Below are positions 9,185-43,859 of a DNA stretch of 55,659 nt, piece after piece. The notes under the pieces were generated by a model, which had not been told where the DNA came from, searched no databases, and saw only the letters and a program-made list of their open reading frames with translations. The stretch's first letter is position 1, and the number at the start of each line of letters is the position of its first letter. Made by a program: the position numbers and the translations under genes. The DNA is taken from NCBI GenBank assembly GCA_963775895.1, contig CAVZKL010000014.1:1-55659 (forward strand). Reading direction: 5' to 3'. Source of the DNA: Candidatus Bathyarchaeota archaeon. GTDB lineage: Archaea > Thermoproteota > Bathyarchaeia > Bathyarchaeales > Bathycorpusculaceae.

Positions 9185-9191
9185 TATTCCC

Positions 9192-9261: not shown

Positions 9262-9338
9262 TACAAACGGACAATCTTGCATGCAAGGTTCACGCCTAAA
9301 AAAGGTAGGATGGAGAATGGGAGTTCTCCGTTGCGTGT

Positions 9339-12000: not shown

Positions 12001-12004
12001 TTTC

Positions 12005-12076
12005 CTTTCTCCCTCTAAATTTGCAGTTTAATAACAGCAGAGCGGTCTATTTAAGAATTCAGGAATTAACCTCTAT
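12005..12076 (-). promoter_or_regulatory. Array promoter/leader motif, copy P2
   Basis: CTTTCTCCCTCTAAATTTGCAG...TATTTAAG-AA-TTCAGGAA-TTAAC-CTCTAT. Confidence 0.85.
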
Positions 12077-12184
12077 AGTTGCTTCTTCAATGGTTGAGCT
12101 GATTGTATGAGTCAAAGAAAGCGAAGCAAGCCCTTCGAGCGCGAATGTCAACATGAACCTATATGATCTGTTTGCATATTCCCT

Positions 12185-16023: not shown

Positions 16024-16091
16024 CCTTCCCTCTAATCTGCACAGAATACTCTATTGAAACGATATTTAAGACTTGAGGAAATAAGTTCTAT
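16024..16091 (-). promoter_or_regulatory. Array promoter/leader motif, copy P3
   Basis: CCTTCCCTCTAATCTGCA...TATTTAAG-AC-TTGAGGAA-ATAAG-TTCTAT. Confidence 0.8.
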
Positions 16092-16151
16092 TGTCAATTC
16101 CGCTCCTTGAATTTGAAGTATTAAATGAAAAAAGGGGGTTGTGAGGACCCA

Positions 16152-19128
16152 TTATGGATAGGTGAATCCGTAGTTGTGCGCTATCGTCACCAGGTCGAAT
16201 ATGTCAATGATGTTGTCGCCGTTCAAATCGTACGCTGAGGCTTGTGGCAGTTTGGATCTCCGAGTTTTGTATCGTAGAAAGCTGCTACAGTTCTAAGGTC
16301 AAAAACATCCACGACGCCGTTGTTCTCTACGTCTCCTTGTATGGGCGAGAACGTGCAGGTGACGCTTGAGCTCACAGTGATCTCATTCATCGCATCCTTT
16401 ACGTAGTGAAGCTTCCCACCACCCGAATAGCTCAAGTTGGCCGATTGGAAGAATATTTGACCAATCTGGTCGTTCTTCCAACCTGGGATCTTGCTCTCTT
16501 CCTTCCACACGCGGTAATAGGCTGCGCTGAACTGTACTGTCATTAACGTTTGAGAACCGCTAATGGAGTTGCCTGATGCTGTGCCAGTGATTTTGCCATT
16601 GGTGTCGTCTATGTTCGAGGTTCCTGATACCCACGCGGTCCAAACGACTCCTGTGCAATCCAAAAGTGTGGTGTTATAGTCGATCTCGAATTCGAAGCCG
16701 TTCACGTCGTAAGCGTTTGTGACTGTTATGGTTATCACAAAGTTCTCATTATGCACTCGACATGTCCTAGTCGTTGGACTCATTTGAAGACCGGGTTGTC
16801 CGCCCGTGATCTTGTAGGTTCCGTCATCGACTGTGTGGGTAATGGATGTGTAATGCGAATCGCTGAGTTTGTGAGTCAAGAAATGAATTGAAGTTTGTTT
16901 CAACAGGTTGGTTTGAGGATCTTCAACGCGGAATTCGATCGTGAACATCGTTTGGCTACCGGTGGTGCTGAAGCCGCTGACAGTAGACACAGCTACGAGC
17001 TTGTACCATCCTGCACCTGTTTCATTCTGTGCAACGAACCAGTTGCCTGCTCCCCACATAGCATCCAACGTTTTATTGAAATAGCAGTTGCTGAAGGTGA
17101 CCAACGTGTTGTCCCAAGTGACGTTACAATCAAACCCAAACAGGTCAGTGATACTGTCAATCTTGACGCTAACGTTGAAATATGTGCCTATGTCACTCAA
17201 TGTTTTCTGTACCAGCGATGGGTCAATGTGGAGTCTCGCTTCATAGGCTTCTTCCTGTCCCACGGTTGTCGTGGGTTCCGGTGATGAGTATTTCCGAACA
17301 GCTACCCACTGGGATTTGATCATTGCCAGTCCAGAGATGCCCTGAACTCTACAGGCATCGGGGTAAGGGTTGACACATGAGTGGCTTTTAAGCTGTCATC
17401 GATGTATACTTTCTCCGCGCCAGCCACAAAGGTAATAGTGTACCAATGGTAAGCGTTTAGGTAGTTCTGGTCAAGCGGCGTTGTTTGACCAACAGGAGGA
17501 TAGGTCCATGCTTGGAAAATGCCACTGGAACGATCAACTAGGATAAAAGGTCCAACCGCATCAGAAGCACAGAATCCAAGCCAGCCATTTGATGTTGTAC
17601 TCCCAACGTAGGCCTCTGTCTCGAGAGCATGACCATTTCCGAAACTGCTCAGACTAGTGACTTGGCTTACCGCGTCAATTATCAGAGCACCTCCCTCGAC
17701 TCTTGGAGAACCTTTGAGAGACCATTTGCCTGCGTCTAAAGTATTGAAATCGTCGAAAAAGTCGAAAGTAGTTGCTCCGTTAGATACAGAACTTGCAGCT
17801 GGGTTTCCATAATACATGTAGACTGTCATCGTGCTCGATCCAGGTATACTTGGAACCTTGACCCAAACAATCGCTGATACCGAATCGGTATAGCTTTGTA
17901 CCCAACACGAAATGAGCGTTGTGCCGTCTGCATCTGTGAACCTCAAATCAGAAAAGTCCGTTTTCATGTCTGAATCGTAAGCCACGTTGATCCTAATTTG
18001 ATAATCGACTAGACTGGTGGACCAGGAGGTTGATAATAGGGATCGAATTGTTCGTTGTAGGTAAGTGCGCCTGAACCGTCTCTCCCTCCGATGGCATATA
18101 GCTTCTTTCCGATGACTCCACAATTGTGACCGTCCCTCGCATGCTTTGCCGATGGAAGTATTTGCCAAGTATTCGTAACAGGATCATACACGCATGCGTC
18201 AGTAGTAGAAAGAGGAAGTCATGCCATGGGAAATGTAGATTTTTCCGTCCAATGCGGCGTTTTCTCTTGCTAGACCCCACCTGCTGAAAGGCATCGATGC
18301 TTTGGTGGTCCAAGTGTCGGATGCAATGTCATAAGCTTCGTTTGTGCTCAGAGTAAGATCTGTTGGTCCTCCTCCGCCTATAGCGTACAGAATTCCGTTG
18401 ACCTCAGAGAGCGAGAAGAACCGTCTAGGAGTCGGCATAGGAGCCTTCGATGTGTCATACGAATCCGTCACAGGATCATACACAATCACGCTGCCTGGAG
18501 TGGTTCCGTCTATCTCAAGCCGCCGATCACATAGATTTTTCCACCATATGCTATTACAGATGGGCTGTGGAGTCCTGATCGTGACTGGATAGTCTGCGCC
18601 TGATGACCAAGAGTCTGCAATCGAATCGTAAATGTAAAGTGTCTTGTAGATAGCTGCCGCCGCTGCTTATTCCTCCGAAGACATATGCTTTCGTGCCAAG
18701 TGCACACGCACCTGCCGCGTAAGAGTGACCGCCAGGCATGCTGGCTTTCTGTGTCCAGCTGTCAGTTGTTGGGTCATAGGCGTATACTTCGCTGCGAACG
18801 TCGCCTGCTCCGCCTGGACCGTATCCGCCAAATATGTAAATCTTGCCGTCTATGATGGCGCTTGATGCGTCCGATAGTCTCAGAGGCAGTGGGGCTTTGT
18901 CGCTCCAGATTCCAACAGGCACTTGCGACAATGTGTTGTCGATTGTTATGGGCTTTCTCTTCGTCCATGACGGATCGTACCAGCTTGGAGGCGCGGTGAC
19001 CGATGGGGTGGAAACGAAGGCGAAAATAAACATGGTGGAGAGGAGGATTGTAAGGATTGCTCGGCACGATGGGTTTTTGAACCTAGTGGAACATGAATTG
19101 CACTGCTTATTGAGAGAACTGGTTTCAT
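16152..19128 (-). CDS. Array gene G4: signal peptide - DUF2341 with inserted Kelch propeller - 2 cohesin-like - dockerin (class B); several frameshifts
   Basis: Fragments 18946..19128, 18554..19033, 18510..18707, 18199..18489, 18009..18191, 17320..18168 and 16223..17323 are collinear with G3; true end YDLNGDNIIDIFDLVTIAHNYGFTYP* at 16152. Confidence 0.8.
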
Positions 19129-19133
19129 ATTGT

Positions 19134-19204
19134 CCTTTCTCCTTTAATTTGCAGTTAAATATGAATCAGAAAAGGTATATAAGATTTCAGGAACGCACTT
19201 CTAT
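19134..19204 (-). promoter_or_regulatory. Array promoter/leader motif, copy P4
   Basis: CCTTTCTCCTTTAATTTGCAG...TATATAAG-AT-TTCAGGAA-CGCAC-TTCTAT. Confidence 0.85.
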
Positions 19205-19401
19205 GCCGGAACTACTTGGAAAAAAGACAAGCGCACGTGCTAGAAAAGAATTTTGACATGTCTTCTAGGTTTGCCTGAGCCTTGTTGTTACCAGCCGTAA
19301 TGAAAGTTCGTTGGAACAATTACGTGGGGCGCGAGCTGTTGAGATGCTTAGAGATTTCCTGCTACGAAGTGAACGTCGATCTAACGTCTACAAAAAGTAC
19401 T

Positions 19402-20811: not shown

Positions 20812-20884
20812 CCTTTCTCCTTCTAATATGCGTGATAATTAAGACTTCTCGAAGCTATTTAAGACTTCAGGAACAGTCTTCTAG
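20812..20884 (-). promoter_or_regulatory. Array promoter/leader motif, copy P5
   Basis: CCTTTCTCCTTCTAATATGCG...TATTTAAG-AC-TTCAGGAA-CAGTC-TTCTAG. Confidence 0.8.
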
Positions 20885-20960
20885 GCAACGCATTCCACGT
20901 TGAGTTTCCTACTTTCACGCGCAAAAACGAGGAAAAAACAAGTGGAGGTTATAGGTGGCT

Positions 20961-25460: not shown

Positions 25461-25530
25461 TCTCCCCTTCTAATTTGCAGAATAAAATACATACCTGAGA
25501 ATATTTAAAGGTTCAGGAACGCAATTCTAT
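25461..25530 (-). promoter_or_regulatory. Array promoter/leader motif, copy P6
   Basis: TCTCCCCTTCTAATTTGCAG...TATTTAAA-GG-TTCAGGAA-CGCAA-TTCTAT. Confidence 0.85.
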
Positions 25531-26094
25531 TCAGAATCCAAGCGCGCGTGTTTGAAGCACTTCAATAAGCTTGAAAAGAACTTGGCCATCAACAAAAACA
25601 AGTTCTAACGAATCTGAGGTAATGAATTCATAGTTGAGATGAACTGTGCGCAAAATCATTCCGCGCAAATTAAAAGGGAAAGGAACAACGAGCGCACAGC
25701 CCATCTCATATCTGTAACGAAGCCGAGGGCAAATATAAACATTCTTACGAATGGAAAAGTTTCAATCGACTCAACAATAGAGAAACCCTTCCACCGCTCA
25801 GCACTAGCCATACAAGAACTGTTCATCCATCTATCAGACAATTGTTTCAAGTAAAACAGAATTTGCATAGCGCACATTCATTGCCAATAATGGTGCCCCA
25901 TAAGTGTATTCGATGAGAATTTCCGCAACAACACTTATATTTTACGCAGACGATAATTCTTGTAGGGAGAAAGGGAAGGACAGCCGAGCGCACCGCCTAT
26001 GGGTAGCTTTGGTTTTTGAACCGTTTTTCGCCAAACAGAACAACAGTCCCGCTTGTTCCGCTACTTGTATTTCATACCTAATGCTTCAGAAAGG

Positions 26095-29215: not shown

Positions 29216-29878
29216 TCAAGCGTTCTTCGTTGATGATCTCTCTTTTTGCAGACCTGAACCTATGCCCGGTGGCAGTTCGGGCAGTTTTTCGTTGATTCTC
29301 TGTTCGGCAACGGTTGCTGCCTCATTCAATATCTTGCTCGCATCCTCATTCAAAGCGTTGAAATTCAGAGTCATCCCAGAACTCTGCCCAGCATCGAACA
29401 TCACGCCGTTCAGCATGTTAGCGATCTCGCCGATCTCGTTCTCAGCCTCAGGAAGAACCCCCACAAGCCCCGTTCTGATAGAACCCAGAACTCCTATCAC
29501 CGGTCCGAGCGTAGACACAACGTCTCCTAGCTCCGACACTGTGCGCAGTCTAAGCAGCACCTGATCGAGCGCCAACCTCGCGTTCATCACCAGCTTCTCA
29601 ACCTTACGAACCTCCGCCAACTCGTTCGCATACACGTTCGCGTGTGCAGTGTCATGCTTCGTGTAAGAATCAACCACCTTCGCAAAAAGCGTCCTATCCT
29701 TCTGCCCGAACCTTTCCGAAGCCTGATCCAACCTCTGAACCTGAAGCTCGATACGCCTCACCGCAACGTCCAAACGAGGCTTCAACGCCCCCTCAGGCCT
29801 AACAGCACTTTTAACACGACTCGGAAAACGCTGCTCTTCTCGACTGGCTTCCCACTTCTTACCAAACCTCTCGGACAA
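29216..29878 (-). CDS. cdvB: ESCRT-III/Snf7 family protein (CdvB paralogue)
   Basis: GALKPRL...YANELAEVRK...LRLRTVSELGDVVSTLGP...ILNEAATVAE...LPELP resembles TACK CdvB-type proteins; TTG start 29878 behind GAGGT. Confidence 0.88.
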   Translation of the reverse strand: MSERFGKKWEASREEQRFPSRVKSAVRPEGALKPRLDVAVRRIELQVQRLDQASERFGQKDRTLFAKVVDSYTKHDTAHANVYANELAEVRKVEKLVMNARLALDQVLLRLRTVSELGDVVSTLGPVIGVLGSIRTGLVGVLPEAENEIGEIANMLNGVMFDAGQSSGMTLNFNALNEDASKILNEAATVAEQRINEKLPELPPGIGSGLQKERSSTKNA

Positions 29879-30052
29879 ACCCACAACCTCAAACCAGAAA
29901 GCTGCCCGCTGCACTCTTATGCGTTGCTAACATGCAGAAAACATGCTCAGATATATGCCCACTCAGACCACACTGGCTCACGCCACCTTGCCCACAAAGC
30001 CCAACAGAAAACCTCAAAACCTAACCGTCCAAGTGAACGCTTCCAAATCGCC

Positions 30053-30148
30053 CGCGCATATTTGGATCCTAATATTCATGATACATCGAAACCGAGGTGG
30101 ATAGGGCACACGATGGCTAAAAAAACAGCCACTAAAGAAACCTTCAAC
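30053..30148 (+). repeat. ~90-bp dispersed element, copy 1 (most diverged in its 3' half)
   Basis: Core GCATATTTGGATCCTAATATTCATGATACATCGAAAC. Confidence 0.9.
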
Positions 30149-30281
30149 GACTAAACCGAGACGAGAAGACAATGTGAGACGTGGCTGTAGAACTGTTATA
30201 GAACCTTGTTTCAAAACATAGATAACAATCGGATACAATATTGCTTCTGAACATTCTCGGGAGAACGGAGGAGGTGATTCC

Positions 30282-31328
30282 ATAAACAAGAAAGATCTGA
30301 TCCTTGTTGTCCTGGCAACCTTCTGTCTGACAGCCACGATATTCATGATACTGCCATCGAGGAGCACAGGACTTTACGACCCATGGAACGACGTCTACCC
30401 AATAGAACCCGACGGCGTAATCAACATGAAAGACATCGCATGGGAAATAGCGAGCTTCAACGCCAAAGCAACGGACAACACAACCGCGAGCACAACAAGG
30501 AAAGTCGCAGTAGACACTTACTCATGGAACGTCTCCAGTTACACCATGAACATGGCACCTCACTCCCTCAACAACCTCAACATATCCACCGCGGGCTACC
30601 AACACGTGTCCCTCATACTAAACGCAAGCTACCTGCTGAACCCCGTGGGCGTCAGAACCGGATTCCTCCTCAACAACGGCTACGCCGGCGTAGACACCTT
30701 CAACGTGGGACCACCTCCTACCTCATCCTCCGGAAATTCACCAAACGCCATGTGGATTCAAGCCCCGAAAACAACAGGAAACGTCGGAGAAAAGTTCAAC
30801 GTCACAGTCTGGGTGTACCTCAAAGATGACAGCGTCTCCTGGCAAGCGGCAGTCAGGTACCCTGCCGGCACACTGAACCTCACAAGAATCGGCTACACCG
30901 CCGGAAACGAAAGCGACTGGGCAACACATCAAAACCCACCCGGCGGAGCCACAACACCCGCAGGACCAGTATCAACGCCCGGATACGTCATCCTCGGAGA
31001 AGCCTTAGCCACCAACGAGCGCGTCCCCGGAATCGTCTACGCAAGCCTCTTCTGGATTGAATTTCAAACATTGACCCCTTCATTCGAAACCAAACTCGAA
31101 CTAGCCAACGTAGGAACAGACACCTTCATCGTGGCCCCAGACCTCAGCCCCCTGCAGTTCACAGCATCAAACATCGACTGGACATACTACCACCTGATCA
31201 ACGCGTTCGAAGCAGAGAAATCCTACCAGATCGCAGGACCAATCCTCACCATCGAATCCGCCAACCCAAACGACTTCAACGTCACACTCAGCATCCAAGC
31301 ATACTTAACAACAGCACCAGGAAACTAA
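30282..31328 (+). CDS. G8: N-terminal hydrophobic signal/anchor - single dockerin-like Ca-loop - beta domain with cohesin-like segment
   Basis: In-frame ATA at 30282 behind GGAGGAGGTGA gives (M)NKKDLILVVLATFCLTATIFMILPSRS; YDPWND...DGVINMKDI; VGEKFNVTVWV...SWQ. Confidence 0.75.
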   Translation: MNKKDLILVVLATFCLTATIFMILPSRSTGLYDPWNDVYPIEPDGVINMKDIAWEIASFNAKATDNTTASTTRKVAVDTYSWNVSSYTMNMAPHSLNNLNISTAGYQHVSLILNASYLLNPVGVRTGFLLNNGYAGVDTFNVGPPPTSSSGNSPNAMWIQAPKTTGNVGEKFNVTVWVYLKDDSVSWQAAVRYPAGTLNLTRIGYTAGNESDWATHQNPPGGATTPAGPVSTPGYVILGEALATNERVPGIVYASLFWIEFQTLTPSFETKLELANVGTDTFIVAPDLSPLQFTASNIDWTYYHLINAFEAEKSYQIAGPILTIESANPNDFNVTLSIQAYLTTAPGN

Positions 31329-31377
31329 CCCACAACAAACCCTCTCTTTCCCTCGCACCCGCAAGCACAGAAACAGA

Positions 31378-31469
31378 GCATATTTGGATCCTAATATTCA
31401 TGATACATTGAAACGAGGGAGGGGAGGGTACACAATAAGCCTTTTTTCAGCGAATAAACAGCCCTCAAC
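31378..31469 (+). repeat. ~90-bp dispersed element, copy 2
   Basis: GCATATTTGGATCCTAATATTCATGATACATTGAAACGAGGGAGGGGAGGGTACACAATAAGCCTTTTTTCAGCGAATAAACAGCCC. Confidence 0.92.
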
Positions 31470-31604
31470 AGCGTCATTGAGCGTTCGGAAATAAAGTATA
31501 ATACACGCATCCTGGACAGTGAATGCTTGGAGAAAAATAGGTTCAGCCCCTCGGACACACAGTGAGTCCGTTCAACCCAACAACGAACAAGGAGAAGGCG
31601 GCGA

Positions 31605-32378
31605 GTGCACAAAAGATACGCAATGGGAATACTGTTTCTGGCACTACTCTCAACACTCCTAGCAGCAAACAGTTCCCCTTCAACCCAAGATCCACTACAA
31701 TCACAACACCCAAATCCGACAGAACAGACCTCCACAACGATAAACATCGACGGCGACGTCGCGCTCACACCAGAACAAAACAGAATGTACTGGAACCCAC
31801 ACTCAACAGGACTAACGAACGCCTCAACGTGGAAAACAACCTTCGAAAACGAAACAGAAATCTCACTTAAAACCACCGCGAACGAAGCCGGACACGTCGC
31901 AACCGGCGCATGGTGGACAACCAGCTTCAAAACAAAAGAAAAACTCCCACTCTACACGTCAAAACCCACCCAAGTCCTCGCAAGCTTCAAGATAAACATA
32001 ATCAACATCACCTACCAAAAAGAAAACGAATGGCTCAGAATCGCACTAGCCAGCGCCACACAACGCACCGACGGATCAGTCGTCTACACCGAAACGGACG
32101 TCTGGGACAGCCCCGCAGCACTACAGTCCCCAAACGGCAACATACCACTCGGAGGAAACACAGTCTACAAAGGCGGCAACGTCGTCGAGTACAAAACAAC
32201 CCAAGCCACCCTGGGCGAATGGAAAAACTACTCCATGAACCTCACGAACCAAATCAACTCTGCCTGGTCACTCAAACCTGGCGACCTGCTTGAAAGCGCT
32301 TACATAGTAATCGAAGTCATCGGAGACGTCTCCGTCACAATCAAAGTTGACGACCTCTGGCTCACCACACTCAATTAA
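31605..32378 (+). CDS. Secreted or membrane-anchored hypothetical protein (Trp-rich beta-sandwich, possibly carbohydrate-binding)
   Basis: N-terminal signal KRYAMGILFLALLSTLLAA, S/T/Q/P linker; GGAG RBS. Confidence 0.65.
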   Translation: MHKRYAMGILFLALLSTLLAANSSPSTQDPLQSQHPNPTEQTSTTINIDGDVALTPEQNRMYWNPHSTGLTNASTWKTTFENETEISLKTTANEAGHVATGAWWTTSFKTKEKLPLYTSKPTQVLASFKINIINITYQKENEWLRIALASATQRTDGSVVYTETDVWDSPAALQSPNGNIPLGGNTVYKGGNVVEYKTTQATLGEWKNYSMNLTNQINSAWSLKPGDLLESAYIVIEVIGDVSVTIKVDDLWLTTLN

Positions 32379-33133
32379 GCAGAACCCCCAGCAAACAAGG
32401 ATTCTTGCGAAAACAAGCTTTTCACCACAAACGCCAACCAGTCTATGAACTGCGAACCCTTCAACTTCGTCTCGCCGTCCTTACGATTGACAAAAGTTAT
32501 CGGAACCTCCTTGACGTTGAAGCCACGTTTTTTCGCCACGGCGATCGCCTCTACGACCCACTCAAACCCTTTGGCCCTCGTCGAACTCACAATCACCTCT
32601 GCACACCTACGGGAATACACTCTAAAGTTCCCAGTGCTGTCATGAACAGAAGTCCTCACAACCAGCTTACAAATCAGGTTGGCCACGTAGCTCACCAATC
32701 GTCTCTTGAAGCCCCAGCGCGCGACCAACCCATCTCGAACGTACCGGCTTCCCTGAATCAAATCCGCATTTTCAGCCGCGCACAACAACCTAGGGATTTC
32801 ACCCGGATCATGCGAGAAGTCAGCGTCCAAAGTCACAATCCATTCAACGTCACCATCCGAAAGAGCCACCTTCAACCCTGTGAGAAGTGCAGAACCCAAG
32901 CCAGACTTCTTTGCTCTCACCTTGACCGTTATGTTCCCGTAAACGCAGTTTAACCTCTCAGCCACTCCAGCAGTATCGTCAGGGCTACCATCATCCACGA
33001 CTATCAAACCAAAACTGAAGCCCTGCAGAACCCTTTCTATCTTCTCCGCAAGACTTGGAAGATTCGCAGCCTCATTGTACGTTGGCACGACAACACAGAT
33101 TTTGCTCAACCAAACTCCCCCTAAACGCTTCAC
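32375..33133 (-). CDS. GT2 polyprenol/dolichol-phosphate mannose synthase-like glycosyltransferase
   Basis: VVVPTYNEA, VDDGSPDDT, LDADFSHDP, GSRY, EVPITFVNRKDGETKL. Confidence 0.92.
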   Translation of the reverse strand: MKRLGGVWLSKICVVVPTYNEAANLPSLAEKIERVLQGFSFGLIVVDDGSPDDTAGVAERLNCVYGNITVKVRAKKSGLGSALLTGLKVALSDGDVEWIVTLDADFSHDPGEIPRLLCAAENADLIQGSRYVRDGLVARWGFKRRLVSYVANLICKLVVRTSVHDSTGNFRVYSRRCAEVIVSSTRAKGFEWVVEAIAVAKKRGFNVKEVPITFVNRKDGETKLKGSQFIDWLAFVVKSLFSQESLFAGGSA

Positions 33134-33136
33134 AGC

Positions 33137-34060
33137 TCAAGTAAACTTCGTAGATTTGATCACCGGCCAAACACCGTACTGACGAGCGAACAAACGGTCC
33201 AACAGGGACAGCAGATAGATAACGCCTTCAATCATTATTGCCCCCAAAAGATATCCCGCGTCCTTGGGCTTATCAGCCACCTCTTCCATCAACACCTGAA
33301 GAGCAACGCCGGGTTTTGAAAGAACGATCGTATCCAGCACCGTTGGATACTCGCCTGTCATTTTCTTTGTCTGCAGGTGTCCGAACAGCCATCTCCTCCT
33401 CTGATTAATATAGTCCCTGAGGTTTGAAGGCCTCAAGTTGTAACAAATGGCTTTAGAAGCGAACTTTATCAGACCCCTTCGCTTGGCTTTTATAGCGATG
33501 AATGAATCGTCAGCAGCACACTCATTAGGAATTTCAGTTTTCACATCGCTTCTTATGGCCATAAACTCTCCACTCGTGTGAGCCATCATTCCCTGATCAT
33601 TAAGTCTAGCCATCAACCTAGCCCAAAGACGAAAAGTCATGTTCGCCAAATAACCTGAAAACCCGTTGGAAACCTTGTTGGGGGTCTGCATCGGATGACC
33701 GCTCACGGCTGAGACTCTTTTGTTTCTGAACGGCAAGAGCAAATGGAACATGGCCTCCTCAGCAAGAGAAACATCCGCAGGGATCAACGCAATATAGTCC
33801 CCGGACGTGACGTCAAAAGCCCTGTTCAACGCTTCGGCTTTCCCCGACCTTTCCTGCTCCTCTATGAGACTTATTTTTCCATCTTTCATCTGCTCTTTCA
33901 CGACGTCAACTGTGCCATCCGTGCATCCTGAGGCAACAACAACTATTTCTCTTTCATCCACCTCTGAAGGAACCTTCTGACTCATCAGTTGTTGGAGAAG
34001 AGGACCTATCGATTTCTCTTCATTGTAGGCACAAACAATAACACTCAACTTCAACCGCAC
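33137..34060 (-). CDS. GT2 glycosyltransferase with QRRRW motif (processive-synthase-like catalytic domain)
   Basis: VIVCAYNEE, GKAEALN, ADD, QRRRW. Confidence 0.88.
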   Translation of the reverse strand: MRLKLSVIVCAYNEEKSIGPLLQQLMSQKVPSEVDEREIVVVASGCTDGTVDVVKEQMKDGKISLIEEQERSGKAEALNRAFDVTSGDYIALIPADVSLAEEAMFHLLLPFRNKRVSAVSGHPMQTPNKVSNGFSGYLANMTFRLWARLMARLNDQGMMAHTSGEFMAIRSDVKTEIPNECAADDSFIAIKAKRRGLIKFASKAICYNLRPSNLRDYINQRRRWLFGHLQTKKMTGEYPTVLDTIVLSKPGVALQVLMEEVADKPKDAGYLLGAIMIEGVIYLLSLLDRLFARQYGVWPVIKSTKFT

Positions 34061-35223
34061 ATCACACTCCCTACTACCTTGTCGAGTTCAGACACGATCC
34101 TGCTGCAGGAACAGTTCTCACGAACAAACTTGGATCCTTCCACCGCAACCTCATCGATTTCGTCAGGAGTTTTAAGAAGCCCGTGAAGGTCAGCAGCGGC
34201 CTTTTCCACGTCATTAGATAACAGGAAACCGTAAGTACCCCGCAACGGCGTTTTGGGTGACGCTTTAAAAGCTGCCACTGGTGTGCCGCAAGCTAGACTC
34301 TCCTGTATCGCACCGTCAAACCACCCGTCAACGTCGTACACTTGAATAGGCGAGAAGGTAATCGCCGAACATCCATAAAACCGCGGAAGTTGGCTGTGAG
34401 GAACATACCCATGGAAGACCACGTGCTCACTAATTCCCAGTCTCTTAGCGAGGCTTCGTCCTCTTGAAAGTCCGGGACCGTCTCCCACAATGTCCAAATT
34501 GAAGTCATTTGAACGTCGTAAGAGCCTCTTAAGAATCTCAATCAGCAGGAAAGGAGACTTCTCGCCATATGCAGTTTCAGGGTTAGGAATCCTGCCAACG
34601 TACAATAGTCGGTTCGTGCGTTTGCGTCGCTTTGATCCCTTTGGCCTGAAGATTTCAGGATTGATACCCGGGACTGGAAGTTTGAAGGCTTTCTCTGCCA
34701 AGCCCAGTTTGACAAACGTCTCCTTCTCTGGTGCGTAGCTATAGAGAATTCTGTCGGCGTTTCTAAGTGCAAGAAGATTTGGTAGATACATCCATTTGCG
34801 TATCAAACGATTGTCGTATCCATGAAGCTGCGCGATGAGTGGTTTCCTGAGCTTCCTCTTGACAAATGCCGCGATGTACGGAAATGAGAAAAGATAGTAA
34901 CTGTGGAAATGAACTAGCTCCGGCTGATCGATCATCATCTCTCTCATTATTTGCGTAGGATTGTGATCGTTTCCGAAGCGGAGAAAAGGAGGGAAGCGGA
35001 ATTTCACGGGAAAAATCTTCACAATTCCAGTCTTCTCCACAGTGTATGTCTGTTTTGACGATACCCCTTGGTGGTAAGAATAGAGAAGCGGTTCGAAGCC
35101 TACCTGTCTGTAGAACTTCAAATACTCGATTGAGAAGTGTTTCCTTCCAATCTTTTCTTCCGATGTCCAGCCGCTGAATCGTTCGTCATGAAGAAGAAGC
35201 GTGAGAGCCCTCGTTACGACCAC
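34051..35223 (-). CDS. GT4 (GT-B) glycosyltransferase
   Basis: LLYVGRI, VGDGP, VVFHGYVPH, ESLACGTPV; start approximate. Confidence 0.88.
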   Translation of the reverse strand: MVVTRALTLLLHDERFSGWTSEEKIGRKHFSIEYLKFYRQVGFEPLLYSYHQGVSSKQTYTVEKTGIVKIFPVKFRFPPFLRFGNDHNPTQIMREMMIDQPELVHFHSYYLFSFPYIAAFVKRKLRKPLIAQLHGYDNRLIRKWMYLPNLLALRNADRILYSYAPEKETFVKLGLAEKAFKLPVPGINPEIFRPKGSKRRKRTNRLLYVGRIPNPETAYGEKSPFLLIEILKRLLRRSNDFNLDIVGDGPGLSRGRSLAKRLGISEHVVFHGYVPHSQLPRFYGCSAITFSPIQVYDVDGWFDGAIQESLACGTPVAAFKASPKTPLRGTYGFLLSNDVEKAAADLHGLLKTPDEIDEVAVEGSKFVRENCSCSRIVSELDKVVGSVMCG

Positions 35224-36557
35224 CTCAACCTCTTTGTGACGTAACGCCAGCACATCACGAGCCAGCTGAACGTCAGAATCGTCATCAGCAGTAGCCTCGT
35301 CCATCCAAGCGGGCCATCAGCGAACGCGCTACTTGCCGAGACCGTCCAGGGCAACGGAAGCCAGAAGAAAGACACCGCAGGCACATGTACGAGTACAAAG
35401 ATGAACAAAAGCAACCATAGCAGCTCGACTCTATCCCAATCGGACGGAAACTGCAGAAACACGCTCAGCGCAAAGAAGGCAAAGAGAAAAATCAAGTTCT
35501 GCTCAGAAACCCAGGCTCGACTGGTGAAAAACGCAAGCATCAGCAGCAACGACCATTGAACGGTTGAAGAAAAACCCGCAATGCCTTTGATGCCTTTGAG
35601 TGTCATCGTGCAAGAGCGAAAGAGCAAGTAGTATATGACTATGCACGCAGGGATCCACGCATAGAGAAGCACCCATGGTGGCTGGAAAGCGTTGCCCCCC
35701 ACGTTGACCAAGAGCGTGAACGCGTTGAAGGGGCTCGCCGCACCGTAAGGGAATGAAGCGAGGGTATCGTACGACGGGTTCGACGTTGTAACATGGTAGA
35801 TGAGCGCGTTGTACATGTTGCTGAGCGGCCAGTTGAAAACGATCATTGGTAGAAAAGTGAGAACACTAGTGATCGTAATCGTGTGAAAGACATAGTTGGC
35901 GGCTCCTTTTTTGCCTCTTCCCGATTTGTACAAAAGCAGGCCATACAGGGGGGCGAGCACGATTGGGTAAAGTTTAAGAGCCGAAGCCACTGAAAGGAAG
36001 ACCCAGGAGTATCCCCCGCTTCGGTATAGGGTGTACGCTGCCAACAGCGTGAATATGAGGGCAACGACGTCGAACATTCCCCATATAGTGCCTACGGCAA
36101 GTATGAACGGACAGAATATGAATATGAGATACGTGGCTGTGGCGATTCTCTCGTTGGTTTCAACCTTCAGTATGTTGTAGATAAGAGAAGCTAGAAACAG
36201 CTCTCCCAATATTATCGGGATTTTCAACGCTAGAACATAGGCGTAAAGATTATTGGGTGCGATCGCAAAGGACAGCAAGCGCATGAGACCGATGACCAAA
36301 CCCCACACTGCTGGGTAACCTAAGCCGGGAAACACGCCGGACAGAAGCGGGTGTGGTGATGCGGCGAACATGTTTTGAAGAACGTATTGCCCGTAGGGCG
36401 TTGTTCCTTGAGACACGGCTACGCCAACTGCCATGAAAACTCGCATGTCAAATGGATGGCTGAGGAATGGGGCCAGGAACAGACGCAGGGCTAATCCTGC
36501 CACGAAATAGCCTTTTTTTGGAATTTTGAACAGCTTTAGATAATCTGAAAACAGCAT
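35214..36557 (-). CDS. Polytopic GT-C-like membrane glycosyltransferase (PIG-M/DUF2029-like)
   Basis: LRLFLAPFLSHPFDM, YPAVW, LKIPIILGE, WGMFD, KLYP; about 10 or more TM segments. Confidence 0.75.
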   Translation of the reverse strand: MLFSDYLKLFKIPKKGYFVAGLALRLFLAPFLSHPFDMRVFMAVGVAVSQGTTPYGQYVLQNMFAASPHPLLSGVFPGLGYPAVWGLVIGLMRLLSFAIAPNNLYAYVLALKIPIILGELFLASLIYNILKVETNERIATATYLIFIFCPFILAVGTIWGMFDVVALIFTLLAAYTLYRSGGYSWVFLSVASALKLYPIVLAPLYGLLLYKSGRGKKGAANYVFHTITITSVLTFLPMIVFNWPLSNMYNALIYHVTTSNPSYDTLASFPYGAASPFNAFTLLVNVGGNAFQPPWVLLYAWIPACIVIYYLLFRSCTMTLKGIKGIAGFSSTVQWSLLLMLAFFTSRAWVSEQNLIFLFAFFALSVFLQFPSDWDRVELLWLLLFIFVLVHVPAVSFFWLPLPWTVSASSAFADGPLGWTRLLLMTILTFSWLVMCWRYVTKRLRWS

Positions 36558-36687
36558 GCAAGTCGAACCGCGTCAGCTTTTCCGTTCATTAGCCTCTTCC
36601 ATGCAAAAATGTATTAAGTATTATGTATTGATAATCAATATACATTGCTTCTGCGCGTGTTCTTTCTGAACAACATGAGTGCAGCTC

Positions 36688-38643
36688 TCAACCGGAGCTT
36701 ATGGTGACGTTCACTCCGAAGTCCGTGATACCTGCGATGGACTGGTTCACGTACAACATCAAATCTATCGGTACTGTCTCTCCAGGTCCAATGGGGTCAC
36801 CTGAATAGTTCCAGCCTATGCTCAGATAGTCCGAGGCGTTAGGCGGGTTCCATCCCGAAACGTTGAGTGAGAGAACCGTGCTGCTTTCGCCCTCGTTCCG
36901 CACAAAAACTGTTACGTTTTCAATATCGCCAGCACCCAGTTTTCCCCAGTCTATTGATTGCACGACGGTCTTGCAGTTTAGATCCCAGTACAGATCAATG
37001 CTTCTTCCTTCTCCCACGATCTCCACGAGACTTAGAGAATCCAAGTATCCGTCACCATTCGAATCATAATATTTGACTATGGCAGAGTTTCCGTACACGC
37101 TCCAGTTCCAGTAGGTCGCCAACAATCTCGACGCGGCTCCGGTCCCAGGTCCACCCAGTCCCGCCGCGACAACCACCCACCATCCGTGATTCGAGTCATA
37201 GTACAAAGTCACCACACCGTAATCCGCACTTACTCTGCCCTGACTGTCATATTCGATCGTGTACTGATGTCCACTGGATGGCACGTTGATGTAGTCAGTT
37301 CCATTTGGAAACTTGTCGAAGTATGCAGACAAGACTTTCGTTCCATTCGGATATCTCAGGTTGTTGTAATACCAAGTGACCTGGTTCACTCCTGGTCCAC
37401 CTATGACCAGCAGATTGCTTGTCAACGAAGTGAAGTTCATTTGTGTAGTAACCAGGTCGTAAGTTGTTATGTAGTCGTCGAGAGTTGAAGCAAGAGAGCC
37501 TCCTGTGGCGTCTTCGCCAAACTGCGCAGCCACCATTATTCCTCCCATCACGTCCATGGTGTGTGCTCCGCCGCAGGGACCGTGACCGACGCTGGAAGCG
37601 ACAACAGCCGTACAATTCAGGAGACCTCCCGCAGCGACGAAGGGGTGTGAGAAATCTCTGAACGTGAAAATCAGAGTGCCCGGATCGGAATAGACAATCA
37701 AAGAGACCTGGGCTGCGGCTACGAATATGAGGACGAAACAAGCTTCGACCAATCTTCGTTTGCGGAAAACCCTGCGCTTCAAAGACTTGGCCTTGGGCAG
37801 GATTGCCGCTCCAAACATTTCAAAAGGCAGTGGGAGGAGTATGTTCGAGACGTTCACGATGCCCGAGACAGACTCAACGATCGTGAGCTTATCCAGAAAC
37901 CCGTCGCCGTTGGTGTCACTGTATTGGACGATCGCCACGCTACCGTGAAGGTTCCATGAATCATACGTCGAGATCACGTCGCAAGCCGCCCAAGTACCGT
38001 ATCCGCCGAGCCCGGCGAGAATTAGCACCTGACGCCCGTGATCGCCGAATGTTAGGACAAGCCCGTAATCAGCTTTCACTCTGCTCTGGTTGTCGTATTG
38101 AATTGTGTATCTGTGTCCCGTGCCAACTACGTAGATGTAATCTGTTCCGTTGGCAAACTTGTCGAAGTAGGCGGGCAGTTCCCTGGTTCCATTTGGATAT
38201 CTCAGGTTGTTGTAGTACCACGTGACTTGGTTGACGCCCGGGCCGCCGATCACCACCAGGTTGGAAGTAAGATCCTTGAGGGTGATTTTTGCCGACGTGA
38301 AATTGTAGGATGAAATCGTGTCATCCATCGTTGCCTCTAGCGTGCCGTTGTGGCTTTTCAAGCCGAATTTGGCACCGACCATTATGGCGCCCATTACGTC
38401 CATGGTATGACATCCCCCACACGGACCATGACCAACGCTCGAAGCAACGACAGCCGTAACGTTCACTGATTGGGTTGACGAAACGAACGGGCTTGGAAGA
38501 TTCTCGAGTCCAAACGCTGTGGCATAAGCGTTCTGTGCGAGTTGAGAAAACAGAAGCAGCGCCAAGGCTGCGAACCCGAAAACGATGAGTACTGACGTCT
38601 TGTTGAATAGACGGAACCGTCTGCATTTGCCAGGATATGGCAA
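36688..38643 (-). CDS. Surface protein with two tandem S-layer-like alpha/beta domains and a C-terminal Ig-like domain
   Basis: Duplicated VASSVGHGPCGG(C/A)HTMD...NL(V/L)VIGGPGVNQVT...AGLGG.GT.AA...D.NGDG.LD; central hydrophobic segments. Confidence 0.7.
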   Translation of the reverse strand: MPYPGKCRRFRLFNKTSVLIVFGFAALALLLFSQLAQNAYATAFGLENLPSPFVSSTQSVNVTAVVASSVGHGPCGGCHTMDVMGAIMVGAKFGLKSHNGTLEATMDDTISSYNFTSAKITLKDLTSNLVVIGGPGVNQVTWYYNNLRYPNGTRELPAYFDKFANGTDYIYVVGTGHRYTIQYDNQSRVKADYGLVLTFGDHGRQVLILAGLGGYGTWAACDVISTYDSWNLHGSVAIVQYSDTNGDGFLDKLTIVESVSGIVNVSNILLPLPFEMFGAAILPKAKSLKRRVFRKRRLVEACFVLIFVAAAQVSLIVYSDPGTLIFTFRDFSHPFVAAGGLLNCTAVVASSVGHGPCGGAHTMDVMGGIMVAAQFGEDATGGSLASTLDDYITTYDLVTTQMNFTSLTSNLLVIGGPGVNQVTWYYNNLRYPNGTKVLSAYFDKFPNGTDYINVPSSGHQYTIEYDSQGRVSADYGVVTLYYDSNHGWWVVVAAGLGGPGTGAASRLLATYWNWSVYGNSAIVKYYDSNGDGYLDSLSLVEIVGEGRSIDLYWDLNCKTVVQSIDWGKLGAGDIENVTVFVRNEGESSTVLSLNVSGWNPPNASDYLSIGWNYSGDPIGPGETVPIDLMLYVNQSIAGITDFGVNVTISSG

Positions 38644-38854
38644 GTCTTGGTCTCCCTGAAGTATGGTGGGATGTATCCTCTTGCTTCTGAATGAGAGAGT
38701 GTATGATGTCTTAATAAACCTTATTCATCGCAACTTCAACAAGAAATCCCTCTAGCAAGCGCATCAAGCTCAACTCGTCGCTGTCCCTTGGTGGAAAGAT
38801 TAAAAGCCAAATCAGTATGAAGAGCCTAATCAGGATATCAAGGAGAGCTATTCG

Positions 38855-39661
38855 ATGAGCACTCGACAAAGAAGAAAGCGAGAAACCGCGCCGAAGAGGT
38901 ATTTGTGGTTTGATGAACTGAGCATGGAAGAAGCGGGAAAGATGGCTAAGGCTGGAAAACCGATCATAATTCCAGTCGGAAGCGTTGAAGAGCATGGTGA
39001 TCATCTGCCGCTGTGCACGGACAGTATCCAGCCCGAGTACGTTGCGCTTGAAGTGGCTGAGAGGAAAGATTGCTTGGTCGCGCCGCCTTTGCGGTATGGT
39101 ATATGTACTTCAGCGCGGAATTTTGCAGGCACCATCTCGATAAGCTTTGAAGCGCTGCACAGGATCATGCTTGATGTTCTTGAAGAGTTCGTTCGAAACG
39201 GTTTCACGAGAATACTCGTCGTGAGTGGGCATGCTGGTCAATATCATATGACCGCGCTCAGACTCGCAGCTCAAGAAGTCGTTCTGAATCACGAGAGGGG
39301 TGATCCAGGCAGGATGCCGAGGATCATGGTTTGTTCCGACTATGACTTCGCTTACGAATTGAGGGGTAAGTATTTCAGTGAAAAAGATGGGCATGCTGGC
39401 ACGATCGAGACTTCACGGGTCATGGCTATCCGGCCTGATCTGGTGAAGAAGAAGGGTAAGGCAAGTTATCCCGAGTTTCCGAGGTTCGAGGTCGTTGCCC
39501 ATCCTGAACGCTACTTTCCGACGGGCGTTATCGGCGATCCTAATGCAGCATCGAGAAAGAAGGGTCGAACGATCAACGAGTACATTGTACAGAACGTTGC
39601 GAAGCTGATCGACGAACTACGCTCTGAAGCGATTGGGAACAACCGGGTGAGAAGAGGATAG
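38855..39661 (+). CDS. Creatininase/ArfB family amidohydrolase
   Basis: PVGSVEEHGDHLPLCTD, SGHAG, HAGTIETS, GVIGDP. Confidence 0.9.
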   Translation: MSTRQRRKRETAPKRYLWFDELSMEEAGKMAKAGKPIIIPVGSVEEHGDHLPLCTDSIQPEYVALEVAERKDCLVAPPLRYGICTSARNFAGTISISFEALHRIMLDVLEEFVRNGFTRILVVSGHAGQYHMTALRLAAQEVVLNHERGDPGRMPRIMVCSDYDFAYELRGKYFSEKDGHAGTIETSRVMAIRPDLVKKKGKASYPEFPRFEVVAHPERYFPTGVIGDPNAASRKKGRTINEYIVQNVAKLIDELRSEAIGNNRVRRG

Positions 39662-39670
39662 TGAGCGCTT

Positions 39671-39758
39671 GGGCTGTTTATTCGCTGAAAAAAGCTTATT
39701 GTGTACCTCCCCTCCTCGGTTTCAATGTATCATGAATATTAGGATCCAAATATGCGCG
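39671..39758 (-). repeat. ~90-bp dispersed element, copy 3 (inverted relative to copies 1 and 2)
   Basis: Reverse complement CGCGCATATTTGGATCCTAATATTCATGATACATTGAAACCGAGGAGGGGAGGTACACAATAAGCTTTTTTCAGCGAATAAACAGCCC. Confidence 0.92.
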
Positions 39759-39764
39759 TGTCCT

Positions 39765-40040
39765 CTATTCTAGACGTTTGATGATGTGGTATCCGAACTT
39801 TGTTTTGACGATTGGTGAAGTCTGTCCCTTCTGCAGTCCGAAGGCTGCTGTCTCGAATTCTTTGACCATTTTTCCTCTGGTGAAGGTTCCGAGGTCTCCT
39901 CCGCGTTTTCCGGATGGACAGAGTGAGGCTTCTTTGGCGATGTTGGTGAACTTCTCCCCTTTGTTGAGGCGTTCCACGATGGTTTTGGCTTCTTGTTCGG
40001 TCTTCACAAGAATGTGGGCGCAGTGAACTTTGTCTGGCAT
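39765..40040 (-). CDS. ppiC: Parvulin-type peptidyl-prolyl isomerase
   Basis: HILVK, SLCPSGKRGGDLG, MVKEFE, KTKFGYHII; ATG 40040. Confidence 0.93.
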   Translation of the reverse strand: MPDKVHCAHILVKTEQEAKTIVERLNKGEKFTNIAKEASLCPSGKRGGDLGTFTRGKMVKEFETAAFGLQKGQTSPIVKTKFGYHIIKRLE

Positions 40041-40158
40041 AGTCCAGTGATATTTGAGCCATGACTTAAGAACCTTTGTCAAACGTGGAGACATAAAGGC
40101 TTTTGAAGGATTGTTGATTCGCTGACGCTTGCTGTTCATCCGACTCGGAACTGCTCAT

Positions 40159-41916: not shown

Positions 41917-42059
41917 AAATGAAGATTGTTCTTGCGCATTACGTGACTGTGACCCTACGCCTTCTACGTGTGCGTTTCCACAAACCATAAGACTGAGACA
42001 GATGAAATCAATAATTGAAGCATAGAGAGTGTTTCTGTCGTTATGGAGGTGGAGGAAAA

Positions 42060-43859
42060 ATGTTTCCGTTGTTATGGTGGTTCACATGGATATTGGTGTT
42101 CGTGTTTCCCATGACAAGAGGCTCAATCAGAAACAAGTCGCGATACCTGCTGTTCGGGGTTTTCGGCGCGTTGTTCGGGTTCATTGCCATTGCGACCGTA
42201 ACGATCGACGTTTACATGGTTCTTTGGCTCATATTCTTCAAACTTTTCATCACCGCGGCAGAGTGGTTTTTCGCGTACGTGAACATCTACAGATTATCCG
42301 ACCGTGAGGAACGACCCATATACGAGAAATATGAGAACAGGAGAATCAGGTCGATGTTTGGTCGAGGCAACCGAAAAGACGAGTACAGATGGCTGGCCGG
42401 CTTTGCAATGGTGGTGGTAATCGTGTTTTCTGTCGTTATGCTTTGGCAGACTCAAGCTGCTTCGGCAGTTAACAACGCAGTTGCTTTCAACCAGATGCTA
42501 ACTTTTCAGCCAACAGGAACTCCCCTGTTTCAGCATGAAATACCAAACAACATGCTGCGGTTGACGACTGAGGAGCTGGCGAAAAGCATCGCATTAAGGA
42601 GTGCTGCGCACTTCGGAAGCGTAAAAGTGGGATCGGCACACATAACGATATACAACGGCCGCCTCGTTTGGGTTGTCACGATGGTGCCTCCAAACCTGTA
42701 CGGCGATAATTCCATAAAGGGATTAGTCATCGTTGACGCAAACAACCCCGAACTCGACGTGGAAATCATCGACAAACCCTTCACAGTCGGCGAAGGACTG
42801 ATCTACTTTCCACCATTTTACACAGGGGACATACAAGGAAACGCCTATTGGGGACAGTCGACCGCCGATGCGTACGGCAGAGCCACACTAACACCCGACG
42901 ATAAAGGTAACTGGAAATACGTGCTAACTGCCACGGAAGTCCAACAATGGTCGTTCGTCGCAAGCCCAAAAGGAGTGTACGTGTACAACGAGTCAGGACA
43001 AGTCGAAAACTTCTACAGCATGAACCATGTCCCCGACTGGGTCACCCAACGCTACGACGAAGGCTGGCTCAAAAGCATGATCAACGTGTGGGGCGGCACC
43101 AAAAGAGGAAACGGCTTTGACATATTCGCGGGAGGCTTCGCTTGGATACCCGCGTCAACTAACAGGGTGGAAATCTCGGACGACGTTCGATGGATCGTTG
43201 ACCCCGACACAAACAAGATAACTGCCCTCGTTGCAGTCGACTTCGTCGGCGAAGCACAGACGATGGCGGGGCTGTTTAAAACCACCGACAACGGAATAGA
43301 ATACTACGACACGAGAGGCTTAGACATTAAGAGTGGGTTGCAGGCGCAGAACGTCATCGAATCTCACATCCTAATGCCGACCACCGGTGCCTACGAAGCA
43401 GAAATGCCTCTGATTTACCCGATAAACGGTGAAAACGCCTGGTTCGTGCCACTGTACTGGCGTACCGTACAGGGCCAATCCACGTCGGCACAGGCGACCA
43501 TCAAACTAGCCGGCCTCGGAATCGTCGATGCGGTGAACCTTGACCACTACACGATAGTCATGACGAGCGAAGGATATCAAGGCGCGGCGCTGGTTGCAGA
43601 GGCAAAAAGCAGGTTCGAAGCAGGGATAGTTCAACCTTCAAACGAGAAAACAGTAACAGGAACACTGAACAACAGATTCTCTTACGTCAACAACGGCAAC
43701 ACTGTCTACGTCCTGACCATCAACCAAACCGACTACGCAGTCTACACGCAGACCTTAGATTTCACAACAGTCAGCAGGATCGAAAAACTTCAGATAGGCA
43801 GCACGGTGACCATAATAGTCAACTCGAACAACAACGAATTCATAAGATTTCCGAGTTAG
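42060..43859 (+). CDS. Hypothetical membrane protein with N-terminal TM helices and a large extracytoplasmic beta-rich domain
   Basis: About 600-aa ORF; GGAGG RBS before ATG 42060; about 4 N-terminal hydrophobic segments. Confidence 0.75.
   Translation: MFPLLWWFTWILVFVFPMTRGSIRNKSRYLLFGVFGALFGFIAIATVTIDVYMVLWLIFFKLFITAAEWFFAYVNIYRLSDREERPIYEKYENRRIRSMFGRGNRKDEYRWLAGFAMVVVIVFSVVMLWQTQAASAVNNAVAFNQMLTFQPTGTPLFQHEIPNNMLRLTTEELAKSIALRSAAHFGSVKVGSAHITIYNGRLVWVVTMVPPNLYGDNSIKGLVIVDANNPELDVEIIDKPFTVGEGLIYFPPFYTGDIQGNAYWGQSTADAYGRATLTPDDKGNWKYVLTATEVQQWSFVASPKGVYVYNESGQVENFYSMNHVPDWVTQRYDEGWLKSMINVWGGTKRGNGFDIFAGGFAWIPASTNRVEISDDVRWIVDPDTNKITALVAVDFVGEAQTMAGLFKTTDNGIEYYDTRGLDIKSGLQAQNVIESHILMPTTGAYEAEMPLIYPINGENAWFVPLYWRTVQGQSTSAQATIKLAGLGIVDAVNLDHYTIVMTSEGYQGAALVAEAKSRFEAGIVQPSNEKTVTGTLNNRFSYVNNGNTVYVLTINQTDYAVYTQTLDFTTVSRIEKLQIGSTVTIIVNSNNNEFIRFPS

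Follow-up and report, generated by a model that had tools for sequence, protein, structure and literature searches.

A dispersed repeat of Bathyarchaeia derived from the start of a putative small terminase gene and its possible role as a chromosomal packaging site

The packaging signal pac of many phages often lies within terS, the gene of the small terminase subunit (TerS), as passages of 10.1101/851345 state. Signals resembling pac also occur in bacterial chromosomes. Passages of PMC10996546 describe about ten degenerate look-alikes of 12–17 bp (pseudo-pac sites) for phage P22 in Salmonella, and passages of PMC6687093 and PMC9006064 describe pseudo-pac sites from which Staphylococcus aureus pathogenicity islands (SaPI) direct one-way packaging of host genes. 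Terminases, and no such repeats, are mentioned in passages of two papers on viruses of Bathyarchaeia (PMC10541130, PMC11705971). Here we analyzed a repeat element in a stretch of 55,659 nucleotides (the window) from Candidatus Bathyarchaeota archaeon (assembly GCA_963775895.1, contig CAVZKL010000014.1, positions 1 to 55,659). The element, as described below, was not found in the open-access literature, a scope that leaves subscription journals and supplementary tables aside; the gene tables of the two virus papers may label the parent gene TerS. We slightly favor, with a probability of roughly 0.55, the reading that the element reproduces, in the chromosome, the pac region of a Bathyarchaeia tailed-virus or satellite family, and that its copies would be bound and cut and would start transducing packaging.

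The first-pass annotation of the window had described an element of about 90 bp in three copies, two direct and one inverted. We located these copies at 30056–30136 (+), 31378–31458 (+) and 39677–39755 (−), and found the claimed anatomy in place, namely a 37-bp core with a single C/T difference among the three copies, the hexamers GGATCC, AATATT and TCATGA, a G-tract and a ...CAGC...TAAA tail. Copies 2 and 3 are 94% identical across 87 nt, and the likeness of all three is far above chance. The dyad proposed earlier, TTTGGAT...AT(C/T)GAAA, is not the conserved one; conservation instead falls on a 16-bp dyad, TATTWG-N4-CWAATA, with GGATCC at its centre and, 9 bp further on, a (C/TG)ATTGAAA-type box. 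The copies and their parts are as follows.

30056..30136, plus strand: copy 1, core with G-tract and tail type B; the 5' end of a terS-like gene, type B being the form still in frame in the intact gene on contig C22
30059..30074, plus strand: 16-bp dyad TATTWG-N4-CWAATA of copy 1, spanning the probable TTG start of the parent gene
31378..31458, plus strand: copy 2, tail type A, whose T-tract is the type B tail in local reverse complement
31381..31413, plus strand: order-wide core of copy 2, that is, dyad, 11 bp and TTGAAA box
39677..39755, minus strand: copy 3, tail type A, at the site where the related genomes G005 and G009 hold a block of 7.6–8 kb

Mapping the copies genome-wide, a check suggested with that annotation, gave 36 copies in the source genome (G000; G, C and L denote genomes, contigs and loci), which comprises 1.77 Mb in 28 contigs and is 89% complete. 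Sixteen copies lie on the plus and 20 on the minus strand, about one per 49 kb, and a 37th pattern match is one copy read in reverse through its own dyad. All 36 fall outside called genes (own ORF caller), and the neighboring genes show no preferred orientation. Of the 35 alignment columns that begin with the C of CATATTT, 33 show one and the same base in 35 or all 36 copies. The tail is of type A in 28 copies and of type B in 7 and is missing from one; the two types differ by a local reverse complement, and copy 1 carries B while copies 2 and 3 carry A. Because the copies are dispersed in such number, the pairings 1/2 and 2/3 form no designed bracket, and the idea that they bracket gene cassettes falls away. 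No terminal inverted repeat (TIR) was found in the G000 copies. The reported lack of a target-site duplication (TSD) was confirmed as well, since the longest shared flank word in 34 copies averages 3.65 versus 3.55 after shuffling (p=0.28, ends set by eye, no empty allele compared); both features would be expected of a miniature inverted-repeat transposable element (MITE). Additionally, no Y1 transposase was found in G000 (DDE, IS110 and serine families were not searched). ATTGAAAS words in G000 show no CRISPR-type period of 58–82 nt (cas genes were not searched), and the sequence after the 37-mer is conserved, unlike unique CRISPR spacers. The window gave no Rfam match at the gathering score, and hence no known RNA family, and no match in a tRNA scan.

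Clustering of 1185 ORFs from 239 loci revealed satellite elements that carry the parent of the repeat. Specifically, in the near-single-copy genomes G020, G183 and G127 the core forms the start of an ORF of about 120 aa, followed by a zinc-ribbon tyrosine integrase gene and tRNA-Cys. An intact solo copy of this small gene is present in G000 at C22:53811-54197 (61% and 47% identical) and has tail B; the unit of about 80 bp corresponds to the first ~27 codons of the gene. We consider it almost certain that the element derives from the start of this gene, and the G000 repeats trace back to one intact, solo gene of the satellite type. Profile matches within the genus nearly all start at positions 2–4 and end anywhere from 21 to 128, hence the left end is fixed and the right end variable. 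Constraint is seen at the level of DNA, where TAT-TTG is kept in 21 of 21 matched rows, AAT in 20 and AAA in 19 of the 21, a constancy that is partly built into the search pattern. In a tree of 45 proteins the G000 gene groups with the solo copies of its congeners (99/89), near the satellites, and lies within a weakly supported group of dyad-bearing genes.

The satellite of G127 (L265:5306-9569) spans 4.2 kb between 21-bp tRNA-Cys repeats and holds the small gene and the integrase gene. The integrase gene of G020 adjoins tRNA-Cys, no second att being found in that contig, and the G183 contig ends inside the integrase gene. Upstream of the core stands a primase-polymerase/helicase gene in G020, a different replication-type gene in G183 and neither in G127; the G020 and G183 genes end just before the core. 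Whatever the replication module, the core lies 370–520 bp before the integrase gene in all three. Searches by tblastn for TerL (the large terminase subunit), two capsid proteins, portal and tail tube gave no match in L263, L265, L244 and L268. The parent elements thus resemble phage-inducible chromosomal islands (PICI) in having a TerS of their own, assigned by position, with no TerL or capsid gene, and a tRNA-end integrase with att repeats (G127), and these findings point to PICI-like satellites in Bathyarchaeia. Two of the satellites carry likely defence cargo, in G127 a two-gene pair that we take to be abortive-infection-like and in G020 (L263:268-9822) a DNA methylase and a PLD nuclease.

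The same small gene occurs beside terL. In four IMG/VR contigs the motif stands at the start of a homologue that overlaps terL, and an alignment search added seven further viral contigs, 11 in all. The small gene carries the motif at its 5' end in 6 of these 11 contigs, as do 10 of 25 terL-linked genes of genomes; the adjoining large gene encodes TerL (phrog_2, E=1e-40). We collected 41 viral and top genomic terL loci and set aside five without a profile match and three with an intein-split TerL. In all 33 complete loci that remained, the small gene ends between −80 and +5 nt from the terL start. TerL of this family is present in about half of the 301 genomes of the order (154 tallied), often in several copies. 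Judged by its position beside terL, the gene of about 120 aa very likely encodes a small terminase. Two narrower viral scans, one with a G000-specific pattern and one with a single protein, gave 0 matches. Fold searches with the small protein (BFVD, PDB Foldseek, VIA wide) returned generic four-helix bundles only and no known TerS. The ESM Atlas places it in clusters without a name, partly viral, which we treat as a lead only, and a predicted complex of the small protein with TerL scored 0.01, which is no answer and was used neither way.

Full head-tail clusters surround terL in G153 and G001. These clusters (L388 in G153, L379 in G001) are compact and have short tape-measure-like genes (205 and 407 aa, respectively), and no replication gene was seen in their fetched 20-kb regions. 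G223 (L374/L375) and G251 (L376/L377) hold, among host genes, a five-gene module that encodes a 135-aa protein, an 85-aa membrane protein, a terS-like protein, TerL and an ABC-ATPase/acetyltransferase; no capsid or portal gene was found within 18 kb of it, and it may possibly represent domesticated, gene-transfer-agent-like machinery. The TerL genes at L282:911-3790, L283:308-3070 and L285:1931-4810 contain an intein with a separate endonuclease-like ORF in another frame.

Next, we compared the type of the terL-linked gene with the type of the dispersed repeat in its host. All 10 hosts of the dyad-bearing genes (10 of 25) have at least 2 dispersed matches (2–75), whereas only 5 of the 15 hosts of dyad-less genes have dispersed copies and 10 have none (Fisher p=0.001, with the best terL locus taken per genome and kin not independent). 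A search of five hosts of the dyad-less type showed that the motif dispersed there is that of the 5' end of their own gene, with 22 matches at one mismatch versus 1 in the control, and many of the 22 run on into the downstream words of the gene.

The core itself occurs in 9 of 10 congeners at 3–13 places each (BLAST). A degenerate form (TATTWG-N4-CWAATA + 11 bp + TTGAAA) was found in 86 of the 301 genomes of the order with 0–87 copies each and about 0 in reversed-pattern controls; outside the order, one of 150 genomes from the class had it. Nearly all of 80 rows of named records with the motif are titled Bathyarchaeota or Bathyarchaeia. Lineages differ in having a G-tract or a T-tract after the core, which occurs in tandem, two-sided and arrayed forms across the order and has the central 4 bp of its dyad in both orientations. 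Housekeeping genes flank the copies in other families, and no enzyme gene is among 53 neighbors. Some copies in congeners consist of the core plus a tRNA-Cys fragment, and tails captured from one locus recur, such as 70 bp with the tRNA-Cys fragment or 235 bp of the parent gene. A universal single-copy dif-like chromosomal site was considered as well and rejected, since several near-complete genomes show background matches only. One G000 copy (C18:28975) lies 2 kb from cdc6, between genes for the DNA polymerase D small subunit and a phoU-like protein, and the single copy of G147 (C48:5057) sits at the orthologous place; the two belong to different families. An exact genus-type core also occurs in L097, a contig whose title gives a non-archaeal genus and which is probably misbinned or mislabelled.

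The DNA downstream of the copies is distinctly biased in composition. At fourfold sites read on the element strand from +85 to +2085, A+C in G000 is 0.713 versus 0.504±0.017 at random intergenic points (maximum 0.555 in 300 draws), and 31 of 35 copies exceed 0.55. The bias peaks 0.25–1 kb downstream, is gone by 4 kb and affects genes of both orientations; twofold sites downstream are shifted T>C and G>A, and no strong sequence-context preference (APOBEC-like) was seen. On the upstream side the first kb averages 0.57 and the interval −4000..−1500 averages 0.495. In the window the tracts are:

30140..34060, plus strand: A/C-rich mutation tract after copies 1 and 2, fourfold sites 0.85 and 0.78 A+C, in genes of both orientations
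37600..39670, minus strand: weak tract after copy 3, A+C of 0.61 at fourfold sites read on that strand

The three genes after copy 2 have values of 0.73–0.76 in G000 as opposed to 0.59, 0.57 and 0.52 in G005, G002 and G008. Three of the four orthologue genomes without a like-oriented site are thus low (0.52–0.59), which supports a tract tied to the site. T-tract loci of other genomes show the same polarity, with 81 of 103 above 0.5 downstream and 42 of 79 upstream, although loci from within a genome are not independent. Where the element strand loses G and T, the opposite strand undergoes C>T and A>G. These two changes are the pattern of single-stranded DNA; they may also arise from a G:T-tolerant heteroduplex. 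We read the tract as the probable footprint of a single-stranded opposite strand. At yeast breaks, as passages of PMC6786661 describe, resection runs 5'→3' and top-strand G is mutated to the right of the break; judged by that pattern, the side of the tract agrees with 5'→3' resection from an end at the element. Elsewhere in G000, long and strongly skewed tracts have no element nearby (C15:22000-44500, C18:53000-63000, C28:10500-20000). Two-sided tracts that diverge are seen at C2 ~13 kb and, next to integrase remnants, at C11 ~8 kb and C18 ~105 kb.

Each of the three window copies marks a rearrangement junction, but they do not appear to be the ends of mobile cassettes. The genes around them are:

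30345..31328, plus strand: G8, 327 aa, no Pfam match
31605..38643: conserved host block of a secreted-protein gene, two GT2 genes, one GT4 gene, a membrane-protein gene and an S-layer-like gene
38855..39661, plus strand: creatininase-family gene, downstream flank of copy 3
39765..40139, minus strand: gene of a parvulin-type PPIase; ~10 bp separate its stop from the left end of copy 3

The block at 31.6–38.6 kb is intact with conserved gene order in G002, G005, G008 and G009, and in G005 and G009 the 31.5–39.7 kb block has the same order and orientation as judged against the creatininase, parvulin and birA genes, thus it is not inverted with respect to these two genomes. The genes at 31605..38643 are passenger DNA outside the element. 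At the copy 3 site G005 and G009 hold 7.6–8 kb of DNA that lies on contig C23 in G000. G8 has an orthologue in only one of 10 congeners, G005 (47%), on another contig than the next gene, and an oppositely oriented element lies 370 bp upstream of it; the G005 counterpart of the 31605 gene likewise has its own upstream element in the opposite orientation. The gene before copy 1 is also located elsewhere. Contigs of four sequencing runs showed no joint expected from inversion or G8 loss, but they break at the repeat, and no piece spans a copy, hence they are uninformative on either event. Of 20 listed sequencing runs none came from a virion fraction, and no RNA run was among them.

The reading we favor is made up of steps of differing strength. 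TerS would bind the dyad and box, and the TerL of a helper virus would cut near the site and package host DNA in the direction of the element. In the recipient cell, the pac-proximal end would be resected 5'→3', leaving the opposite strand single-stranded to deaminate (C>T, A>G) or to win G:T heteroduplex mismatches; on the element strand this would give G>A and T>C, fading over ~4 kb. The pac end would then recombine with other copies or with unrelated DNA, producing synteny breaks, new copies and converted tails, and preferential packaging would spread the copies as a drive. That the chromosomal copies are working pac sites we judge to be the better bet, and that resected transduced ends made the A/C footprint has a little less than an even chance. 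The widest form of the proposal, 'pac-drive', takes the copies as selfish repeats seeded chromosome-wide as true viral or satellite packaging signals, with viruses as agents of targeted gene transfer and copies that spread by packaging, restructure the genome at their left end and bias the next 4 kb; we offer it tentatively, the balance being against it. Among the options raised earlier, a loading site for a DNA-transaction protein comes closest, with a viral terminase as the most likely protein instead of Orc1 or a recombinase.

Several observations weigh against this packaging interpretation. The small protein matches neither Pfam nor PHROG families, and it is modelled as a generic four-helix bundle with no helix-turn-helix (HTH). 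G000, at its 89% completeness, gave no match to TerL, portal, capsid or tail proteins; neither terL nor terS was found in G137, a single contig with 56 sites, and terS was not found in G227, G075 and G086. With no TerL or capsid match in G000 and no terS in several high-copy genomes, the enzyme must be transient, gone or brought by infection. The tract and the site also part company in places. The same three genes carry an equally strong tract (0.78–0.79) in G009, where no site was found, and of 159 strongly skewed windows in G000, 92 are anchored on a copy and 67 have none nearby. Other congeners and the G-tract loci show a weak skew without clear polarity (above 0.5 in 21 of 34 and 20 of 38, respectively, with similar values upstream). 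In G137 the skew is two-sided, downstream +0.049 (null −0.003±0.017, maximum 0.050 in 500) and upstream negative in 18 of 22; the 20 regions fetched from this genome cover 24 of its 26 site groups, and it has 56 matches in total. Furthermore, headful fragments would be tens of kb long, so the 4-kb decay needs end processing as an added assumption, and both ends are common to 34 of the 36 copies, which calls for gene conversion or unit copying beyond simple transduction. Binding, cleavage and virion packaging at the copies are themselves predictions from sequence.

The two-sidedness in G137 agrees with a cut mended on the spot and not with the arrival of a one-ended fragment, and it leads to an explanation that keeps the origin and the protein. 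Terminase, or another nuclease that TerS recruits, would cut the chromosome at these sites without killing the cell, and the tracts and rearrangements would result from repair of the break where it occurred, with no transfer to another cell needed. In a variant, the copies may be host decoys that soak up viral terminase. The antisymmetric form of the G137 skew agrees with this, as do upstream values below 0.5 in the pooled T-tract loci, the occurrence of two-sided and tandem sites, and the two-sided tracts by integrase remnants at C11 and C18, from which it appears that breaks leave such a signature in G000. The G000 tract is, however, one-sided, with neutral composition beyond −1.5 kb upstream, the multiplication of copies is left unexplained, and packaging normally ends in lysis; we regard local cutting as unlikely. 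A MITE-like origin is more improbable still. Here the element would be a non-autonomous relic of the tRNA-Cys satellite, and either the satellite's zinc-ribbon tyrosine integrase or host repair would have moved it; the dyad would be an integrase or regulator site overlapping the gene, and the tracts would stem from mobilisation. The constant spacing of core and integrase gene in the three satellites, irrespective of the replication module, would suit this, together with 10 tyrosine-recombinase matches in G000, the core-plus-tRNA-Cys-fragment copies of congeners, the uniform 80-bp length in G000 and the two orientations of the central 4 bp across the order. Yet the satellite att is the tRNA-Cys end and not the core, the motif also stands in terL operons with no adjoining integrase, dyad-less terS lineages spawn dispersed 5' ends of their own, and TIR and TSD are both lacking.

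Two further explanations read the element as a chromosomal site of another kind. The first is a replication origin that fires in one direction, or a polar fork barrier, that came from the satellite; with tracts from strand displacement or stalled forks, it would account for the replication genes that end just before the core in G020 and G183, for the copy 2 kb from cdc6 and for the single G147 copy at the orthologous place. The G127 element, however, has the core with no replication gene, the G020 and G183 genes are unrelated save for a C-terminal zinc finger, and across loci the motif tracks the terS gene, not the replication gene. The polarity is also opposite to that of an origin firing away from the site, as the element strand loses G and T. 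We consider this origin or barrier highly improbable. The earlier likening to origin recognition boxes (ORBs) does not hold either: true ORBs stand inverted beside cdc6 (C18:25429 and 25594) and differ from the element in sequence and spacing. The dif/att-like recombination sites of the first-pass annotation, pairs that would excise G8 and invert the glycan block, survive only in the synteny breaks seen at all three copies relative to G005, and in an imperfect 11-6-11 symmetry that can be drawn around GGATCC in some congeners. The block keeps its orientation in G005 and G009. Instead of single or paired sites at one recombinase locus, the order has 0–87 dispersed copies per genome, 36 of them in G000, and bare or doubled dyads, the expected crossover products, do not exceed the control in G000 (11 weak bare matches versus 11 in the reversed control). 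Such pairs are scarcely credible here.

The window holds other features outside the element. The gene at 29216-29914 encodes 232 aa with no Pfam match, is 66% conserved in G001 and presumably resembles ESCRT-III/CdvB proteins. A long cluster of secreted-protein genes on the minus strand (8152-28913) carries dockerin, cohesin, PKD, Kelch, DUF2341 and InlB B-repeat domains and internal tandem duplications, a cellulosome-like surface assembly in an archaeon. Within it, six copies of an upstream motif of 35–78 nt (9184-9263, 11999-12078, 16059-16093, 19127-19206, 20852-20886 and 25498-25532; families D14 and D16) consist of the TATA-like TTTAAATA on the minus strand and a conserved tail, precede dockerin/cohesin surface-protein genes and may form a shared promoter or regulon. 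Additionally, the contig depth at 41952-43000 is 10–20x that of the flanks in all four sequencing runs, which points either to strong conservation of the 614-aa gene at 42015-43859 (80% DNA identity in G002 and G008) or to its presence in other organisms as well.

If the packaging interpretation is true, it would define a chromosomal gene-transfer route for an abundant, uncultured archaeal group, with its start points mapped and the recognising protein named, and would give a function to an unannotated protein family (241 representatives, E<=0.001). Strand-specific A/C enrichment after packaging starts would be an extra mutational force that alters the codon usage of core genes, and the history of transduction would be readable from one genome sequence. 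Wetland-sediment viromes would then show coverage steps at 36 known coordinates, with slopes in known directions.

Compared with known systems, the element shares with archaeal MITEs that it is short, multicopy, intergenic, non-coding and patchy among relatives, whereas it has no TIR or TSD and its parent is a packaging gene and not a transposase gene. As in the pac of headful phages (P22, SPP1, Sf6, T4-like), the site lies in the 5' part of a small gene abutting terL; unlike there, the small protein matches no known TerS in sequence or fold, the host is an archaeon, and recognition and cleavage are predicted here. DNA uptake sequences of Neisseria and Pasteurellaceae (PMC2397512, PMC7811141) offer an analogy in that a signal may accumulate by biasing which DNA is transferred, but the present element is virus-derived and long, counts tens and not thousands of copies, and would act in packaging, not uptake. 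Unlike SaPI/PICI satellites, the parent elements are archaeal, tRNA-Cys-targeted and equipped with a zinc-ribbon integrase, and would depend on a helper; neither amplification of pac copies as a repeat family nor a compositional footprint is described in passages of PMC6687093 and PMC9006064. The chromosomal sites resemble a viral signal on both strands and are directional, as are P22 pseudo-pac sites in the passages of PMC10996546. In contrast to the P22 sites described there, they are 36 (up to 87) near-identical pieces of 47–80 bp copied from a gene, homogenised within species, placed at rearrangement junctions and accompanied by a mutation tract. What sets them apart from the pseudo-pac sites of P22 and SaPI is the amplification of true copies together with a compositional footprint.

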